Made by a program: the position numbers and the translations under genes. A DNA stretch of 64,000 nucleotides, taken from Thainema sp. GTDB taxonomy: Bacteria; Cyanobacteriota; Cyanobacteriia; Phormidesmidales; Phormidesmidaceae. The number at the start of each line of letters is the position of its first letter. Positions within the stretch are counted from its first letter, which is position 1. Where the stretch lies: positions 128,001-192,000 of the forward strand of contig JBQLZK010000002.1 of the NCBI GenBank assembly GCA_052168235.1, written 5' to 3'. This document shows, one piece after another, positions 14,532 to 20,237 of this stretch. Under the pieces are notes generated by a model. The model did not search any database, had not been told where the DNA came from, and worked only from the letters and a program-made list of their open reading frames with translations.

Positions 14532-15914
14532 TCATCTAATCTGGAGGCTGGGTTCTGCTGCATGAGACGGATCGCGCTTCATTAGCAACAGGTAGGTGGT
14601 CATTTCGCCTTTTCCCTTCACCGCGATCGCACCTCGTTTTTCCAGAAAGTACTTGTCTTTCAAACATTCGTAGGTTGCTTCGGTGACTTGAATGCGGTTG
14701 GCGATGCCGTGGGATTCCATGCGGCTGGCCAGATTGACCGTATCGCCCCACAGGTCGTAAATAAATTTCTTGATGCCGATCACGCCAGCTACGACTGGCC
14801 CGGTGGCGATGCCGATGCGGATGTGGAAATCCTGCCCGGTGCGCTGGTTGAACTCGTGCAGGGTGCGCTGCATGTCGAGTGCCATATCTGCGATCGCATC
14901 AGCATAGTCGTCGCGGGGAATGGGCAGTCCCGCCACCACCATGTAGGAGTCGCCAATGGTTTTAATTTTCTCCAGTCCGTGCAGGTCGGCTAGGCGGTCG
15001 AATTCCGAAAAGATTTGGTTGAGTAACTCCACCAGCTCAGGCGGCTCGATCCGCGAAGAGAGTTCGGTGAAGCCGACGATGTCGCCAAACAAAACGGCCA
15101 CGTCGCTAAAGCTGTCGGCGATGGTGCTGTTTTGTTGCTTCAGCCGTTCGGCAATCGGTCCGGGCAAAATGTTGAGCAGCAGGCGTTCGGAGCGTTCCTG
15201 CTCGACAGATAGCTGCTCGTAGGCGCTTTCGAGGGCGCGGCGCGAGTTAAAGTCTGAGCGCTGCAAGCGATCGTAGAGATATACCGATAAGTCGCAGGTG
15301 CCGCACAGCCAGAAGAAATAGAGAAACGTGACGGGTGCAGTCATCCATTCGGTCGGCATGATGACATCGAGCTTAAAAACAACGGTCAATACTGCACACA
15401 GCCCAAACAGTCCCAGTTGCGATGCCATGTGTAGTCGCCAGCGGACGGGGATGAGCGTGGCCTGACCGAGAAACATCAGCGGCCAGATCAGCAGAGACGG
15501 TTCCATGTTGCCTTCGACGATGCCAGCAGCTTGGGCATTGAGGTTAATCGACCAGGAGGTCAGCAGGAAAATCACTTCTGGATAGCGATAGCCAAATGGC
15601 GATCGCAGTAAGACATACCAGATGAGCAGGCACAATTCGCCGACGAGTTGGGTAATAAACCAACTGCCTAGAAATTCCTCTGGTTGAAACAGCCACTCGT
15701 AGAGTTCCAGCCCCATGAACGTGAGGAAGGAAAGAAAGGCGAGGACAAGTCCCAGGCGCAATCGCTTGTGCATGAAGTGCTGCCGCCACTCATCGTAGTT
15801 GGCTGCTCGACCAGCGGGGAGACTGCCAAACAGGAGATACTGCACCCGAGCGAAGAGTCTGGCGATTGGCGATCGCTGGGCTGGGGGAGGCTGGGTTGAG
15901 GGTTGTTGGCGCAC
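14532..15914 (-). CDS. Membrane-bound class III adenylate/guanylate cyclase
   Basis: Multiple N-terminal TM helices; 'LLLNILP', 'VLFGDIVGFT', 'EKIKTIGDSYM', 'YDLWGDTVNLASRMES'. Confidence 0.93.
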   Translation of the reverse strand: MRQQPSTQPPPAQRSPIARLFARVQYLLFGSLPAGRAANYDEWRQHFMHKRLRLGLVLAFLSFLTFMGLELYEWLFQPEEFLGSWFITQLVGELCLLIWYVLLRSPFGYRYPEVIFLLTSWSINLNAQAAGIVEGNMEPSLLIWPLMFLGQATLIPVRWRLHMASQLGLFGLCAVLTVVFKLDVIMPTEWMTAPVTFLYFFWLCGTCDLSVYLYDRLQRSDFNSRRALESAYEQLSVEQERSERLLLNILPGPIAERLKQQNSTIADSFSDVAVLFGDIVGFTELSSRIEPPELVELLNQIFSEFDRLADLHGLEKIKTIGDSYMVVAGLPIPRDDYADAIADMALDMQRTLHEFNQRTGQDFHIRIGIATGPVVAGVIGIKKFIYDLWGDTVNLASRMESHGIANRIQVTEATYECLKDKYFLEKRGAIAVKGKGEMTTYLLLMKRDPSHAAEPSLQIR

Positions 15915-16079
15915 GGCGTTAAAGAGTCTGGGAACTTTTAACTTAGTTGTACCCTTTCGGGATTGAGTTGTACCCCGAATTTGGTCGAAAAAGTAGTTCG
16001 CTGGCCTGTAGTCATACCATACGCACTTTGAGATCTGAGATCAGTTTGCGATCGCTGTTTGATAGCTACACCCAAACAG

Positions 16080-16835
16080 ATGATTGACCCTGATCAACCA
16101 ACACTCGATCCAACGTGCATTACCCAAACTGTTCTTACGCAACACCTTTGCAACACGTTACTGCAACACATTACTATGGCTAGCATTAGACGCTTCATCC
16201 AAGCCGTTCATCGCTATTACACAACTGGCGAGGTCGGCGATGTGGCTTTTCTCAAAATCAATCTGTTCAAAGCAGGAGTGAATCCGGCGATTCAAGACCA
16301 GCTTCAGAAGTTGGCCGGATACTATCCCAAAATCGACCTGGATCAGCTCAGCCAGCTACCGCCGGGAACGCTTGGCTACGAATACGCTCAGCATATGCGG
16401 AAAAATGGCATTCAGCCGTTGAACATTAGCCCCGACCTGCATGAAGCAGCCAACCGCAACCCGTTTGCGCTGCGCTATGTGGTGACGCACGATATGTTTC
16501 ACGTTCTGCTGGGATTTGACACGAGCTATGCCGGAGAAATTGGGGTCTATTCGTTTGTGGTGGCGCAGAACTACAGCAAATTGTTGAACCTGTTTCATCC
16601 CGTGGCCCAGGTACTTTATCCGGTAATTGAACCCCGGCGCATCAAGGAAACGCGCTCGTTTTTCCGGCTGGGAAAGGCGTTAGGTGAGCAGGCGCAGTGT
16701 CTATTAACCTATCGGTTTGAAGATAATTGGGAACGACCGATTGCGGATGTGCGATCTCAACTGGGTTTGGTCTTGACGACTCAACAGCCACCATCTGATG
16801 ACGCTTATCCAGCGACTCCAGCCGTCATCCACTGA
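16080..16835 (+). CDS. Coq4-family protein
   Basis: 'LPPGTLGYEY' and HDxxH-x11-E metal motif 'HDMFHVLLGFDTSYAGE'. Confidence 0.8.
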   Translation: MIDPDQPTLDPTCITQTVLTQHLCNTLLQHITMASIRRFIQAVHRYYTTGEVGDVAFLKINLFKAGVNPAIQDQLQKLAGYYPKIDLDQLSQLPPGTLGYEYAQHMRKNGIQPLNISPDLHEAANRNPFALRYVVTHDMFHVLLGFDTSYAGEIGVYSFVVAQNYSKLLNLFHPVAQVLYPVIEPRRIKETRSFFRLGKALGEQAQCLLTYRFEDNWERPIADVRSQLGLVLTTQQPPSDDAYPATPAVIH

Positions 16836-16892
16836 TGATTGCAGAAACGGCTGAAGCTTAAGTCTGCTCAAAATTCCTGCTCCCGCTCTGGG

Positions 16893-17056
16893 CTGCTACT
16901 TATACACATCTGAATGGTTCGTCTAAATCCTGGACTGATCCCCCTAAATCCCCCTTAAAAAGGGGGAACTTTGAGCCAATTCCCCCCTTTTTAAGGGGGG
17001 CTAGGGGGGATCTCAACGTCGAAACGAAGTCTAGAAGACTTATGTATAAACAGTAG
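16893..17056. mobile_element. MITE family A, copy 1 (164 bp)
   Basis: Imperfect TIRs ctgctacttatacaca / tatgtataaacagtag; internal atccccctaaatccccctt...aagggggctagggggat palindrome; second copy at 30826-31118. Confidence 0.8.
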
Positions 17057-17132
17057 CCCGCAGGAGAAGGGGAGCCGGAAAGTTAATTTTTCAAAGTCCC
17101 TCTCCTGTGGGAGAGGGATTTAGGGTGAGGGC
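17057..17132. repeat. Short dispersed palindromic repeat (host of MITE A copy 1)
   Basis: tccctctcctgtgggagagggatttagggtgagggc; related half-element at 42022-42063. Confidence 0.6.
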
Positions 17133-17134
17133 AA

Positions 17135-17416
17135 TTAGTTCAAGTACTGCGTCAGAATGCTCATTTGATCATCGGGTTGCCTGGGTAAGAGTCGCGCTAC
17201 GTCTCCGGCACCGGGACAGGGAATCGGCTGGCTCCAGTCGTTGGCTTCGGCAAAGCCGCGTCGATGCAGGTTTTTGATCGTGATGATGATGTCGGAACGG
17301 GTGCCGAGCAGAATAATTCGCAGGGGATGGCGACCGTCGGGCTGGAAGCTGCTGGGGTTGGGCGCACTGGACTGTAGCGCTGCATCGGAGGCAGCACCGA
17401 GAATGAAATATGTCAT
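17135..17416 (-). CDS. Small cyanobacterial protein of unknown function (93 aa)
   Basis: AGGAG RBS 7 nt before ATG; 'LRIILLG...TIKNLHRRGFAEANDWSQPIP...MSILT' pattern that I recognise as a multicopy cyanobacterial hypothetical family. Confidence 0.75.
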   Translation of the reverse strand: MTYFILGAASDAALQSSAPNPSSFQPDGRHPLRIILLGTRSDIIITIKNLHRRGFAEANDWSQPIPCPGAGDVARLLPRQPDDQMSILTQYLN

Positions 17417-17520
17417 TGTGGTTCTCCTGTTTTTGACTTTTTGAGGAAAGCCAAAAACCTAGCCACCCCGCAAACGTGCAGCGCAATGCAGGGTGGCTTT
17501 GGAGAAGGTTATAATCCTCC

Positions 17521-17605
17521 ACAGCCTCCGCGTTGCCGAGTACAACCGGGGGTTAGCTATCCAGGGTTGGTCGCAACAACTCTGGGTAGCGTTGACTAGA
17601 TTTTT
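17521..17605 (+). ncRNA. Candidate antisense RNA overlapping the leader of the 17135-17416 gene
   Basis: TATAAT at 17510-17515 just upstream; two hairpins (17523-17554, 17556-17590) whose mismatches are G-U pairs only on the + strand; T-run follows. Confidence 0.5.
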
Positions 17606-17652
17606 GGTAGCAGTCGCCGCACGTGTTTAGGGCTACGACAACTTAACGTTTC

Positions 17653-17681
17653 ACAGTACGGTATCTGGCCTGTGGAGTCAA
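17653..17681 (-). promoter_or_regulatory. Sigma70-type promoter for the 17135-17416 gene
   Basis: TTGACT-N17-TACTGT on the minus strand. Confidence 0.6.
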
Positions 17682-17793
17682 TACAGGTTCACTGACAGAA
17701 TATAGAAATAGATGGGATTGTTGGGTTGAAGAATGAAGCTCATTTTAGAAGATTTGCGATTTATTTAGCATTCTAAAGCAAGAGTTTTAGGTT

Positions 17794-19509
17794 TCAATTC
17801 GCCGAAAGCTCTATATTGTCTAAAGCTACTTTATAAATCCTTTTTGCCCTCAAGGCATTCAAATCATTTTCTTTAGAAAGGTTGATAATGGCTTCGCGCA
17901 AAAAGCCAGAGAACTCTTCTCCTGCTTTAAGACCATGATTGATTATGAGATCCTTGTCAGGACCCTCTTCCATAAGCCACTGTTTCCATTGATCTAAAGT
18001 GCGAGTATTTAGATAATTTAAATCGTTTTCAGACCAGCTCTCATTTCTGATCATGCTGACTAGAATTTCATTAATACTCATATTCTGCTCAAAAGTAGCT
18101 ATCTTTTCTTCAAGATCAGGTACTAGACCAGCTAATTCGAAAATACCATTTTTTTCAACAATCAATCTTAAACTATATAAATCTTCTAGCTTGGAATAGC
18201 TTTCAATCCTATATCTTGCCCATTTCTCTGCATAGGAACTAATATCTAGATCGATTGTATCTGAAATATCTTTTAGATCTGTTATTTCTCGGAAATCGAG
18301 TAGAGAATAATAACTATCTAAGAATGCCTTTATATTGTCCTGGAGTTCTTTCTCGGCAGGTTTAAATGATTCTAGAAATGGTTTACAAGCCTCATGAAAT
18401 TTTTCTTGCATTTCATATCTATTTTCTCTATCATTTAACCTGACACCTTCCTCATGAAACTTTTTATAATCGCAAAACGATGTTTCAACTAAACGAATAA
18501 TTTCATTGCTAATGTGTGAGTCTGTGTATCCAAGAGAACAAGCCAACATGTAGAAATCTCTCTTCTTGTTATTATTTTCAGATAGAATTTCTGAGAAGTC
18601 TCCCAATGAAACCAAATAATCCAAGTTTATGACGAAATTGCTGTCCAACTTGGATAATGTTATGAAAATAATCTCATTAATTATTTTTTCTCTAACTCTG
18701 GGTAAGAAATCGGCAATGTGTGGCCTCAATTTTTCAAGATTCCATCTTAGCTTCTTAAAAATTCTAATATTCTTAACTTGAACAGTTTCTTGACTGAGGT
18801 AATTAAAAACGATCTCTTTATCCGGATCATTTTCGCCAAAGCCAATATTGAAGTTCTCTACCAGATTGGGATCTAGTTTAATCTCATAGTCAATCACTTT
18901 TTCTCTATAGTCTTTCAGAATGCTGGTAGATTCTGAATCCAAGGCGATTTTGCTTTCGTTGTAAATAAGAATAACCTTACATTCTTTTTCCTCTGATAGA
19001 TTTTCAATAAATCCTAATAGTTCCTCTAAAGGTAATTTTCTAGATCTTCTTTCAAGATCATCAATACAGATCAATTTCCTTTTAAGAAAATTACTAAGAA
19101 ACACATTGCTTGCCAATGAAATAGCTGCTGGCGCAAGTCCAACTCCGTGATCTCCAATTGGAAGTTCTTTAATCAGGCTTCCTATATCTTGCGAGTTATC
19201 TCTGATAGGTTTGAACCATTTCCGAAAGCGTAACTTATTGCTTTCACTGTCATTTGATTGTCCGACCGATCTGTAGTTGCTCCATAGTTGGATACGCAGT
19301 TCCTCAATAGTTGAGACTCCAAAAACAGAGGCGTAGTAGTACTGTTGATTATTGCTTGATAAGATACTTGTTATCAAATGTGTTTTGCCAATTCCCCAAT
19401 CTCCTTTGATGGCAAATACTTTAGCCTCGTTACCTTGCTCCAGAAATGCTTTAATAGCTTCTTCTGATTCTTTACGTTCTAGCCCAAAAGTATATTCGTT
19501 ATTTTTCAT
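17794..19509 (-). CDS. KAP-family P-loop NTPase (putative anti-phage protein)
   Basis: Walker A 'IKGDWGIGKT', Walker B 'LICIDDLER', 'YREKVIDYE', 'NIRIFKK'; visibly AT-rich and I saw no HIP1 site in it. Confidence 0.85.
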   Translation of the reverse strand: MKNNEYTFGLERKESEEAIKAFLEQGNEAKVFAIKGDWGIGKTHLITSILSSNNQQYYYASVFGVSTIEELRIQLWSNYRSVGQSNDSESNKLRFRKWFKPIRDNSQDIGSLIKELPIGDHGVGLAPAAISLASNVFLSNFLKRKLICIDDLERRSRKLPLEELLGFIENLSEEKECKVILIYNESKIALDSESTSILKDYREKVIDYEIKLDPNLVENFNIGFGENDPDKEIVFNYLSQETVQVKNIRIFKKLRWNLEKLRPHIADFLPRVREKIINEIIFITLSKLDSNFVINLDYLVSLGDFSEILSENNNKKRDFYMLACSLGYTDSHISNEIIRLVETSFCDYKKFHEEGVRLNDRENRYEMQEKFHEACKPFLESFKPAEKELQDNIKAFLDSYYSLLDFREITDLKDISDTIDLDISSYAEKWARYRIESYSKLEDLYSLRLIVEKNGIFELAGLVPDLEEKIATFEQNMSINEILVSMIRNESWSENDLNYLNTRTLDQWKQWLMEEGPDKDLIINHGLKAGEEFSGFLREAIINLSKENDLNALRAKRIYKVALDNIELSAN

Positions 19510-19556
19510 AAATGTTTAAGCTTTAGCCCAACTTGCTCATCCCATCACTTATTATC

Positions 19557-19588
19557 GGTGCGTTTCGCTTCGCTCTACACACCCTACA
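19557..19588. repeat. REP-like half element (copy 1 of 2)
   Basis: ggtgcgtttcgcttcgctctacacaccctaca; near-identical to 20902-20933. Confidence 0.7.
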
Positions 19589-19596
19589 AATTCTGG

Positions 19597-19965
19597 TTAC
19601 AACACCTCGATTCTGACTACTCCACCCTCAACAGCATCTATCTGTAACCTGTATCCATAAAGCATTCCCATCCCAATTAAAGGCTCCGTTTCCGACTCGG
19701 CAACATCAACATCTCGATATTGCCCATCCCAAATAATTGTTGCCGCGTACAAATCAAATAGCGCCTCACTACCATCACCCAAAGTGACAATATCTGAGGC
19801 ATTCCAAGGCAAATTCAATGCTGTAATCATTGCCGATGGCAACGTGAGAAAACCATTGAACCCCGTATCAATCACCGCATTAATAAGCTGCCGTTGTCCA
19901 CTCGCATTACCAACCACCAGCGGCAAAATCGCTTCACAGCGTTGATTAACCGTACCTTGAATCAT
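19597..19965 (-). CDS. Clan AA (retropepsin-like) aspartic protease
   Basis: 'NAVIDTGFNGFLTLP' and 'PLIGMGML'; ATG 19965 overlaps the upstream stop (ATGA). Confidence 0.88.
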   Translation of the reverse strand: MIQGTVNQRCEAILPLVVGNASGQRQLINAVIDTGFNGFLTLPSAMITALNLPWNASDIVTLGDGSEALFDLYAATIIWDGQYRDVDVAESETEPLIGMGMLYGYRLQIDAVEGGVVRIEVL

Positions 19966-20237
19966 TTTTTCTTTTGCAAAGACCGTGCGCCGAAGTGATA
20001 AACCGCACGATGCCCAATCCGAATCACCCAAGGTTGAGCATCAGGATACTGTTCAAACAAGCGATTCGTCGCAGGCAAAACCTGATCCGCAACCTCAAAC
20101 GCACCCGTCTCAATATCAATCGCAACAATTCTGCCCTCATTGCCAGCCTCAACCTGCTGCCGAATACCCGATTCGTACAGCTCTTGCCCTCGTCGAGCCA
20201 ATTCCTCTTTGCTATGTCGCCGCTGTCGAACTGCCAT
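19962..20237 (-). CDS. Small partner protein translationally coupled to the aspartic protease (DUF5678-like)
   Basis: 'EELARRGQELYE...GRIVAIDIETGAFEV...VIRIG'; TA-like two-gene layout. Confidence 0.75.
   Translation of the reverse strand: MAVRQRRHSKEELARRGQELYESGIRQQVEAGNEGRIVAIDIETGAFEVADQVLPATNRLFEQYPDAQPWVIRIGHRAVYHFGARSLQKKK

Follow-up and report, generated by a model that had tools for sequence, protein, structure and literature searches.

A repeated cyanobacterial cassette with a folded mRNA leader, a small-protein gene and a putative antisense RNA on the opposite strand

How is a small-protein gene controlled when a second promoter-like box, on the other strand, lies inside its own leader? 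The question is raised by a locus on the minus strand of a 64,000-nucleotide (nt) stretch of the cyanobacterium Thainema sp. (assembly GCA_052168235.1, contig JBQLZK010000002.1, positions 128,001 to 192,000; hereafter the window, whose own numbering is used throughout), where a gene for a protein of 93 amino acids is preceded by a leader of about 230 nt and a promoter. In the initial annotation, made from the letters of this single locus, the arrangement was taken for a self-contained module under antisense control. The promoter, the open reading frame (ORF) and the leader placed here by that annotation can be read directly; the plus-strand TATAAT, followed by two hairpins whose non-Watson–Crick positions are G-U pairs on the plus strand only, was confirmed, as were the GC-rich hairpin with a U-run behind it and a second hairpin nearer the ribosome-binding site (about 17429-17459, minus strand). 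As a whole, the arrangement was found again in 20 paralogues from two genomes and in 79 homologues, far beyond chance, and the locus is, on balance, probably a self-contained cassette in which a folded messenger RNA (mRNA) leader is controlled by an antisense RNA. The antisense part of the module as first proposed was strengthened by wobble pairs that are family-wide and by a conserved -10 box, whereas the binding of the protein to an operator and the analogy with the P1 c4 and P4 CI RNAs were not supported.

The copies of the gene were searched for by tblastn in the same genome, and 14 close ones (72-100% identity, E up to 5e-29, one of them truncated) were found, together with 5 additional distant copies of the ORF. 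When the copies were aligned, conservation was found to start about 25 nt 5' of the -35 hexamer and to stop at the stop codon, with unrelated flanks, and the repeated unit is therefore composed of promoter, leader and gene. Among 41 related genomes, protein matches were obtained in 31, with up to 39 matches per genome (these not being copy numbers), and the leader was recognized by a covariance model (R1) in 24, with up to 25 matches each and E values down to 1e-23 outside the genus. Leader and protein matches adjoin in the related genomes: an ORF of at least 55 amino acids starts within about 140 nt (mostly 20-60 nt) of the leader in 33 of 34 leaders, and it is a member of the family in 31 of these 33 (the chosen start being out of frame for L042 and L066). 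A DNA pattern scan, the majority of whose matches were chance matches in other phyla, was filtered with R1. Of 18 loci bearing cyanobacterial titles, from Microcoleus, Alkalinema, Oscillatoria, several Leptolyngbya, Coleofasciculus and Phormidesmis, 17 were confirmed to have the leader, and the named carriers include Alkalinema pantanalense CENA528, Oscillatoria sp. CS-180, Microcoleus sp. FACHB-1515 and Leptolyngbya sp. BC1307; on the scan loci, R1 also confirmed all three from one metagenome-assembled genome and none of six non-cyanobacterial controls. The cassette belongs to filamentous non-heterocystous cyanobacteria. Homologues of the protein were also found on 7 Nostocales plasmid records and on no phage record, and the R1 leader was absent upstream of the homologues in the two Nostocales plasmids examined (best E 0.099, filters off). 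The comparisons described below are based on the 20 copies from the own genome and a congener (alignments A1 and A2), on 34 sequences (A3, from which a partial self-hit, a weak hit on the opposite strand and a duplicate were dropped for this count) and on 79 homologous leaders (A5), namely those fetched out of about 200 R1 matches.

The promoter in front of this unit was invariant or nearly so in 18 of the 20 own-genus copies, and in many of the 79 homologues TTGAC[TG] precedes the model start by about 31 nt and TAnnnT does so by about 8 nt; the sense transcript would begin near 17646. In several distant homologues (L066, L071, L073, L074, L078 and L097), the spacer of this promoter contains the cyanobacterial palindrome GCGATCGC (HIP1) directly 3' of TTGAC. 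The inverted repeat CTCCACAG(G)CC, which overlaps both promoters and had been considered a possible binding site for the protein, is present in the window copy; at a length of at least 8 nt it was found only in the window and its orthologue (2 of the 18 paralogues with anchors, 2 of the 20 copies lacking them), with at most 6 nt shared in the others, and it was rejected as a conserved operator.

The fold of the leader was derived from the 20 aligned copies and was found to consist of a hairpin, P0, followed by a four-hairpin junction (P2-P5) that is closed by the long-range helix P1 of 14 base pairs (bp). Standard pairs occupied 89.8% of the cells of alignment A2, compared with 85.8 ± 0.4% in shuffled alignments, none of 500 reaching the observed value; 16 pairs varied on both sides, compared with 10.1 in the shuffles, and slid controls were merely 30-48% paired. 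Compensatory variants of P1 were also observed in distant homologues. Folding of a 301-nt stretch gave z values of -6.6 for the minus strand and -4.1 for the plus strand; none of 100 shuffles folded as well in either case. The Rfam comparison that had been called for in the initial annotation was made with Rfam 15 (E up to 1) on both strands of 15000-20000 and gave three matches, none inside 17417-17700, and hence no family match to the leader.

The stability of both strands raises the question of which RNA each helix serves, and the distribution of wobble pairs offers an answer. A helix selected in an RNA tolerates G-U pairs, and a G-U pair read on the other strand is an A-C mismatch. In the 20 close copies, P0, P1, P4 and P5 paired better in the mRNA sense (100% vs 87% for P1), whereas opposite-strand pairing was better for P2 (92% vs 78%) and P3 (95% vs 83%). 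The same division was found when the 79 homologues were counted in the mRNA sense. P0 presented 88 G-U against 28 A-C, P1 110 against 5, and P4 and P5 together 163 against 13, which amounts to 361 against 46 for these helices; P2 and P3 presented the opposite relation, with 12 G-U against 129 A-C and 20 against 76, respectively. The picture was unchanged in the 71 sequences outside the own genus, and the count on 34 sequences was in agreement (28 against 3 for P4 and 37 against 2 for P5). Folding energies, a comparison that does not depend on the alignment of pairs, pointed the same way: in all 74 sequences long enough to be compared (5 of the 79, being truncated, were dropped), the P2-P3 segment folded more stably in the antisense orientation, by a mean of 10.9 kcal/mol, and the sense orientation was the more stable one for P4-P5 in 63 of 74 and for P0 in 59 of 67. 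Because of these strand-specific wobbles and energies, the counterparts of P2 and P3 (P2' and P3') appear to be kept folded in a plus-strand RNA and the other helices in the mRNA. At the level of sequence, the signatures generalise to the whole family what had been observed in a single copy, and the count of G-U against A-C by strand could serve as a simple finder of hidden antisense genes in other leader RNA candidates.

The plus strand also carries candidate signals for the synthesis of such an RNA. All 79 homologues carry a hexamer of the form xAnnnT (position 2 being A and position 6 T), in variants that include TATAAT, TACAAT, TAAAAT, TAACAT, TAGAAT, TACCAT and CATAAT, and in every one of them a distance of 9-12 nt (mostly 10-11) separates its 3' end from the end of the AGCC that follows. 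The A of AGCC, kept in 78 of the 79, is located 7-8 nt after the hexamer, and 7-8 nt past a -10 box is the usual distance of a start site. Folding places AGCC opposite GGUU at the base of P3', which accounts for the conserved leader motif GCUAACC. Depending on the copy, the hexamer is found in the loop of P4 or in a stem arm, so that a constraint at the DNA level fits better than an RNA loop motif. Behind the two hairpins, the plus-strand complement of the 5' strand of P1 provides a U-run; a U-run of at least 4 follows P2' in 52 of 75 homologues, 6-13 nt past the stem, which is not the canonical spacing of a terminator. Some copies would allow P2' to be extended by the flanking UUAGC and GCUAA, so that the U-run would adjoin the stem, but folding prefers the AGCC/GGUU base. 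We strongly infer from these comparisons the existence of a two-hairpin antisense RNA of about 85 nt.

How far the close copies agree differs sharply between parts of the leader. Pairwise identity among the 20 close copies was 0.47 for the P2 loop and 0.43 for the P3 loop, with 0.78 for the whole leader, 0.83-1.00 for the P2 stem and the inner P3 stem and 0.85 for the P4 loop, which holds the -10 box; the P2 and P3 loops are even less alike than third codon positions (about 0.66 identical, a derived value). Fast-changing loops on conserved stems match what would be expected of copy-specific kissing contacts between an mRNA and its antisense RNA and are suggestive of such contacts.

At its 3' end, the leader appears to be built as a switch. 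When the tail was folded alone, a conserved UUUCCU located 3' of P1 paired with the region of the Shine-Dalgarno sequence and the AUG, and in 57 of 66 homologues the P1 3' strand also took up at least 3 nt of this region; the remaining 13 of the 79 stood outside the tail folding, as the rule used to locate the ORF and the Shine-Dalgarno sequence found none. The helix between the anti-Shine-Dalgarno and Shine-Dalgarno sequences covaries between subfamilies, being formed by GGGAUUCC/GGAAUCCC, GGGUUUCC/GGAAACCC or GUUCUGUUUUCU/AGGAAACAGAAC, and in some subfamilies the sequence before the AUG is a repeat of the 5' strand of P1. The leader, as judged from these pairings, has two states, one with P1 closed and one with the ribosome site buried, which are mutually exclusive because P1 and the sequestering helix both use the 3' strand of P1. 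The positions of all these elements are listed in Table 1.

Table 1. Coordinates of the elements of the cassette in the window
Feature	Positions	Strand	Remarks
Sense promoter	17653..17681	-	-35 TTGACT 17681-17676, spacer 17 nt, -10 TACTGT 17658-17653
Structured mRNA 5' leader, about 230 nt	17417..17646	-	Helices P0-P5 and ribosome-site region
P0 hairpin, variable loop	17612..17643	-	Selected in mRNA sense
P1 5' strand CCAAAAAUCUAGUC	17594..17607	-	14 bp, 100% paired in 20 copies
P4 hairpin	17495..17526	-	Base GGCU/AGCC overlaps outer P3 pairs
P5 GC-rich hairpin, then UAGGUUUUUGG, terminator-like	17462..17497	-	Loop motif UUGCRCU conserved
P1 3' strand GGCUAGGUUUUUGG	17451..17464	-	Alternative partner: region just before/over ribosome site
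Anti-Shine-Dalgarno CUUUCCU (17444-17450), spacer, Shine-Dalgarno GGAG (17424-17427)	17424..17450	-	Pairing covaries
Gene for 93-amino-acid protein	17135..17416	-	93 codons
Putative antisense -10 TATAAT	17510..17515	+	In loop of leader P4
Inferred antisense RNA, about 85 nt: P3', P2', U-run 17601-17605	17523..17607	+	3' end uncertain
P3' hairpin	17523..17554	+	Starts with AGCC, paired to GGUU
P2' hairpin, complement of leader P2	17556..17590	+	Plus-strand pairing 92% in 20 copies

A mechanism can be proposed in which these elements act together. The strong sigma-70 promoter would produce an mRNA whose leader carries P0 and the P2-P5 junction closed by P1, and in which the 3' strand of P1 and the UUUCCU that follows could re-pair with the Shine-Dalgarno and start region. 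From the opposite strand, a promoter consisting of a -10 box only, in the P4 loop, would give rise to the antisense RNA, which would start at the A of AGCC, comprise P3', P2' and the U-run and be an exact complement of P3, P2 and the P1 5' strand. Docking would most likely occur at the loops of P2 and P3, which are hypervariable and specific to each copy, and the two RNAs would then spread into a duplex, perhaps a substrate of RNase III. With the 5' strand of P1 taken up in this duplex, the 3' strand would become available to the sequestering helix and lock the ribosome site, with repressed translation of the small dimeric protein as the outcome; repression is the direction of control that we infer by analogy.

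Several results weigh against this scheme or limit it. When the leaders were folded at equilibrium with the antisense target blocked (n = 62), access to the ribosome site was lower in 24, higher in 7 and unchanged in 31, and because this effect is weak the direction of control is not established. A simple scan for consensus promoters and terminators called neither the sense nor the antisense promoter and no terminator, and no conserved -35 element was found for the antisense promoter, the conserved P5 loop being at a variable distance from the -10 box. The U-run after P2' is missing in 23 of 75 homologues and elsewhere stands off the stem, so that the 3' end of the antisense RNA and its mode of termination are uncertain. 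Alignments A3 and A5 were fitted to the own-genus model, by which the pair counts lean towards that model, and related copies are non-independent samples. Contigs of three metatranscriptome runs of one study and of one DNA run were compared with the locus; contigs about 97% identical, and hence from a relative's copy, cover 17248-17669, and the RNA contigs extend past the predicted sense start to 17669-17700, DNA carry-over being possible. As neither strand nor ends nor levels can be read from them, they are compatible with the presence as well as the absence of either transcript.

Part of the evidence could be explained by control through the leader alone. The junction would then act as a riboswitch or protein-binding leader governing access to the ribosome site; the A-C mismatches, perhaps as protonated A+.C pairs or as sites of recognition, and the AU-rich loop of P4 would belong to the mRNA, and no antisense RNA would be made. 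The clear covariation and conserved junction of the sense leader are in its favor, as are single-stranded motifs that are conserved, such as the P5 loop UUGCRCU, and the competition between P1 and the sequestering helix would work without an antisense RNA. The glutamine riboswitches (glnA RNA and Downstream-peptide motif) provide a precedent for a structured leader before a small cyanobacterial ORF; they differ from the present leader, which matched no Rfam family at E up to 1, forms a multi-helix junction of about 200 nt and bears an antisense signature without counterpart there. A purely sense RNA would, however, be expected to tolerate G-U everywhere, and the excess of A-C over G-U in P2 and P3, with the reverse in the other helices, contradicts this expectation; the -10 pattern and its fixed distance to AGCC also hold whether the hexamer is in a loop or in a stem arm, and control by the leader alone is considered quite improbable.

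The same antisense RNA could instead act mainly on transcription, by causing the nascent leader to terminate at P5 and its U-run, rather than by blocking translation. Such countertranscript-driven attenuation would resemble that of pT181 and pIP501, where a countertranscript is likewise directed against the leader and a terminator-like hairpin stands between target and gene. P5 is GC-rich, is sited between the antisense target and the ribosome site and is followed by a U-run of at least 4 in 65 of 75 homologues, and the convergent promoters are about 125 nt apart. Unlike in those plasmid systems, the U-run is absent in 10 of the 75, including a subfamily with a different P1 sequence; furthermore, no conserved pre-emptor (anti-terminator) pairing was established, only inspection by eye suggesting that the 5' arm of P3 might pair with the 3' arm of P5, the simple scan called no terminator, and the strongly covarying helix that sequesters the Shine-Dalgarno sequence points to translational control. 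Attenuation remains as a rival or additional mode, and as the principal one it appears unlikely. It was also considered that the plus-strand hairpins might be structures of single-stranded DNA, used in recombination, replication or transposition, which would explain the many dispersed copies per genome; folded single-stranded DNA also tolerates G-T wobble, and copies adjoin variable, island-like genes. Nevertheless, the hairpins occupy the middle of the unit rather than its ends, the conserved stretch is bounded exactly by the promoter and the stop codon, neither terminal repeats nor target duplications were seen, the copies are not accompanied by a transposase or recombinase, the window copy keeps synteny with the orthologue of the sister genome, and a -10 box placed 7-8 nt ahead of the first hairpin is what a transcript start requires, all of which makes this explanation highly improbable.

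The gene itself is coding, since pairwise differences are in excess at the third codon position (1137, 441 and 2418 for positions 1, 2 and 3, respectively). Residues 10-28 or so of the protein are variable and the core of residues 29-93 is nearly invariant; among 13 full paralogues, the N-terminal segment (about 17333-17389 in the window) was hypervariable and residues 29-93 nearly identical, and the segment could be a tail for specificity or partner binding. Profile searches of the 93-residue protein against Pfam, NCBIfam and PADLOC returned no family, and the best match to PDB profiles had an E value of 0.34. The AlphaFold2 model, built with 41 sequences, presented a mean predicted local distance difference test (pLDDT) score of 73.6, a disordered N-terminus and a beta-alpha-beta-beta core with values above 90 at residues 30-60. 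Structural searches gave a best E of 0.28 with Foldseek and, with VIA-align, a best Z of 4.3 for a papillomavirus E2 DNA-binding domain (root-mean-square deviation 4.9 over 63 residues), which is below the level that would mean more than the common beta-alpha-beta arrangement. A homodimer model, with contact through strand residues 30-39, scored 0.59 against 0.04 for the best control, with an agreement between runs of at least 92% and a partner pLDDT of at least 70; in the calibration of the method, this mark was attained for 20 of 30 homodimers of known structure and for 1 of 23 single chains, figures that apply only roughly here because a custom alignment was used. The protein is probably a soluble alpha/beta domain that forms a dimer. 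It had been described at the outset as no hydrophobic pore-former, and the hydropathy values agree: the maximum (Kyte-Doolittle, 19 residues) was 1.04, 40 of 41 members were below 1.6, and no membrane segment was found. The family comprises 827 clusters at 50% identity (E up to 0.001), all of small proteins; the named clusters are labelled 'hypothetical protein' and come from Leptolyngbya, Iningainema and Rhizonema, and the protein atlas gave only unnamed cyanobacterial clusters, from which a function was not obtained. The protein is possibly a toxin-like or regulatory factor, and the cassette points to an unstudied small protein that is kept in dozens of regulated copies.

The logic of a cis-antisense RNA acting on a folded leader is familiar, and both the RNA pair and the protein family are uncatalogued. 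One close likeness is to CopA/CopT of plasmid R1 (repA) and to the Inc RNA of IncI/IncB plasmids (repZ), where a cis-encoded stem-loop antisense RNA of about 70-90 nt has its own promoter, its target is formed by leader hairpins well upstream of the ribosome site, recognition occurs through loops and translation is affected indirectly, via long-range structure. In contrast to these systems, the gene described here is no replication initiator, the cassette is chromosomal with dozens of copies, the RNA and protein sequences are unrelated, and neither a leader peptide nor an activator pseudoknot was found, no search aimed at them having been made. The type I toxin-antitoxin systems with soluble toxins (SymE/SymR and RalR/RalA) and the multicopy ones (Ldr/Rdl and Ibs/Sib) likewise combine a small-protein gene with a cis-antisense RNA to the 5' untranslated region, and in these systems the mRNA buries its own ribosome site and many paralogues per genome have diverged recognition sequences. 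A type I reading of the cassette is possible, with the differences that the protein, of 93 amino acids, soluble and predicted to be dimeric, is not the short hydrophobic membrane peptide of the classic systems and that it has no relation to SymE in sequence or fold. The P1 c4 and P4 CI RNAs are processed from the same strand as their target sites; the RNA proposed here is on the opposite strand and has its own -10 box, and the analogy drawn with them at first fits poorly.

Among cyanobacteria, a 2025 report (PMC12390103) describes MsoT1/MsoA1 of Microcystis as the first type I candidate of the phylum, in which such systems were unknown before that year; the present cassette resembles that candidate in that a small-protein gene is accompanied by a putative antisense RNA, encoded in cis and directed at the 5' untranslated region. 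Keyword searches of the literature returned nothing on the leader RNA or the protein family, a result that cannot show absence from print. A bolder proposal, which we hold only tentatively, is that the cassette represents a novel type I-like addiction or defence module, in which a soluble dimeric effector of an uncatalogued family would be paired with a two-hairpin antisense RNA that steals one strand of a long-range helix, dozens of paralogues would be insulated from each other by private, fast-evolving kissing loops, and the sense junction (P4, P5 and the P5 loop) might also sense a ligand or the encoded protein, yielding an RNA switch with two inputs. Control of a structured leader by a cis-antisense RNA is classic in plasmids and type I toxin-antitoxin systems and scarcely documented in cyanobacteria, and the many natural variants offer material for the study of orthogonality among paralogous sense and antisense pairs.

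The genomic surroundings of the cassette were also compared. No partner gene is conserved across the copies, which are dispersed among unrelated genes; some of them adjoin genes that match PADLOC candidate defence models (a KAP NTPase, a DUF3800 protein and a DUF726/TerB protein). In the window, a KAP-family P-loop NTPase gene (17794-19509, minus strand; PADLOC PDC-S49, E 3.7e-21) lies directly upstream of the cassette, and upstream of a second copy (G000:C11) a KAP NTPase was matched weakly. The simple promoter scan called a single site, TTGAAA-16-TAGAAT at 17770-17797 (minus strand), which falls at the 3' end of the window's NTPase gene and is directed towards the cassette. The window copy is syntenic with a copy in the congener, with 95% identity over the cassette and different genes on both sides. 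At the syntenic place in this sister genome, the KAP NTPase is replaced by a DUF5131 gene and a gene for 447 amino acids without family, and the cassette therefore borders a variable island. On the other side, a Coq4-like ORF (16059-16835, plus strand; Pfam Coq4, E 1.5e-17) separates the cassette from an adenylate cyclase gene; the sister site lacks this ORF, and the gap between cyclase and cassette is only about 113 nt there.

Repeats were observed at both ends of the unit. Nested palindromic repeats resembling miniature inverted-repeat transposable elements occupy 16900-17132, right behind the stop codon, and are distinct from the cassette; they also follow several other cassette copies and are found at many places in the sister genome. 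One of their arms (17096-17132) gave a sub-threshold Rfam match to 'whalefall-1' (28.5 bits, against a gathering score of 37), and contig depth in the RNA libraries was very high at 17104-17137 (810-1820). Upstream of the cassette, a short hairpin-forming repeat (GGTTGGGTTGAAGAATGAAACCCAAC-like) was found at about 17705-17750 and also upstream of four further copies (G000 C42, C34, C26 and C28); it may be the terminator of the preceding gene or belong to another family of small repeats.

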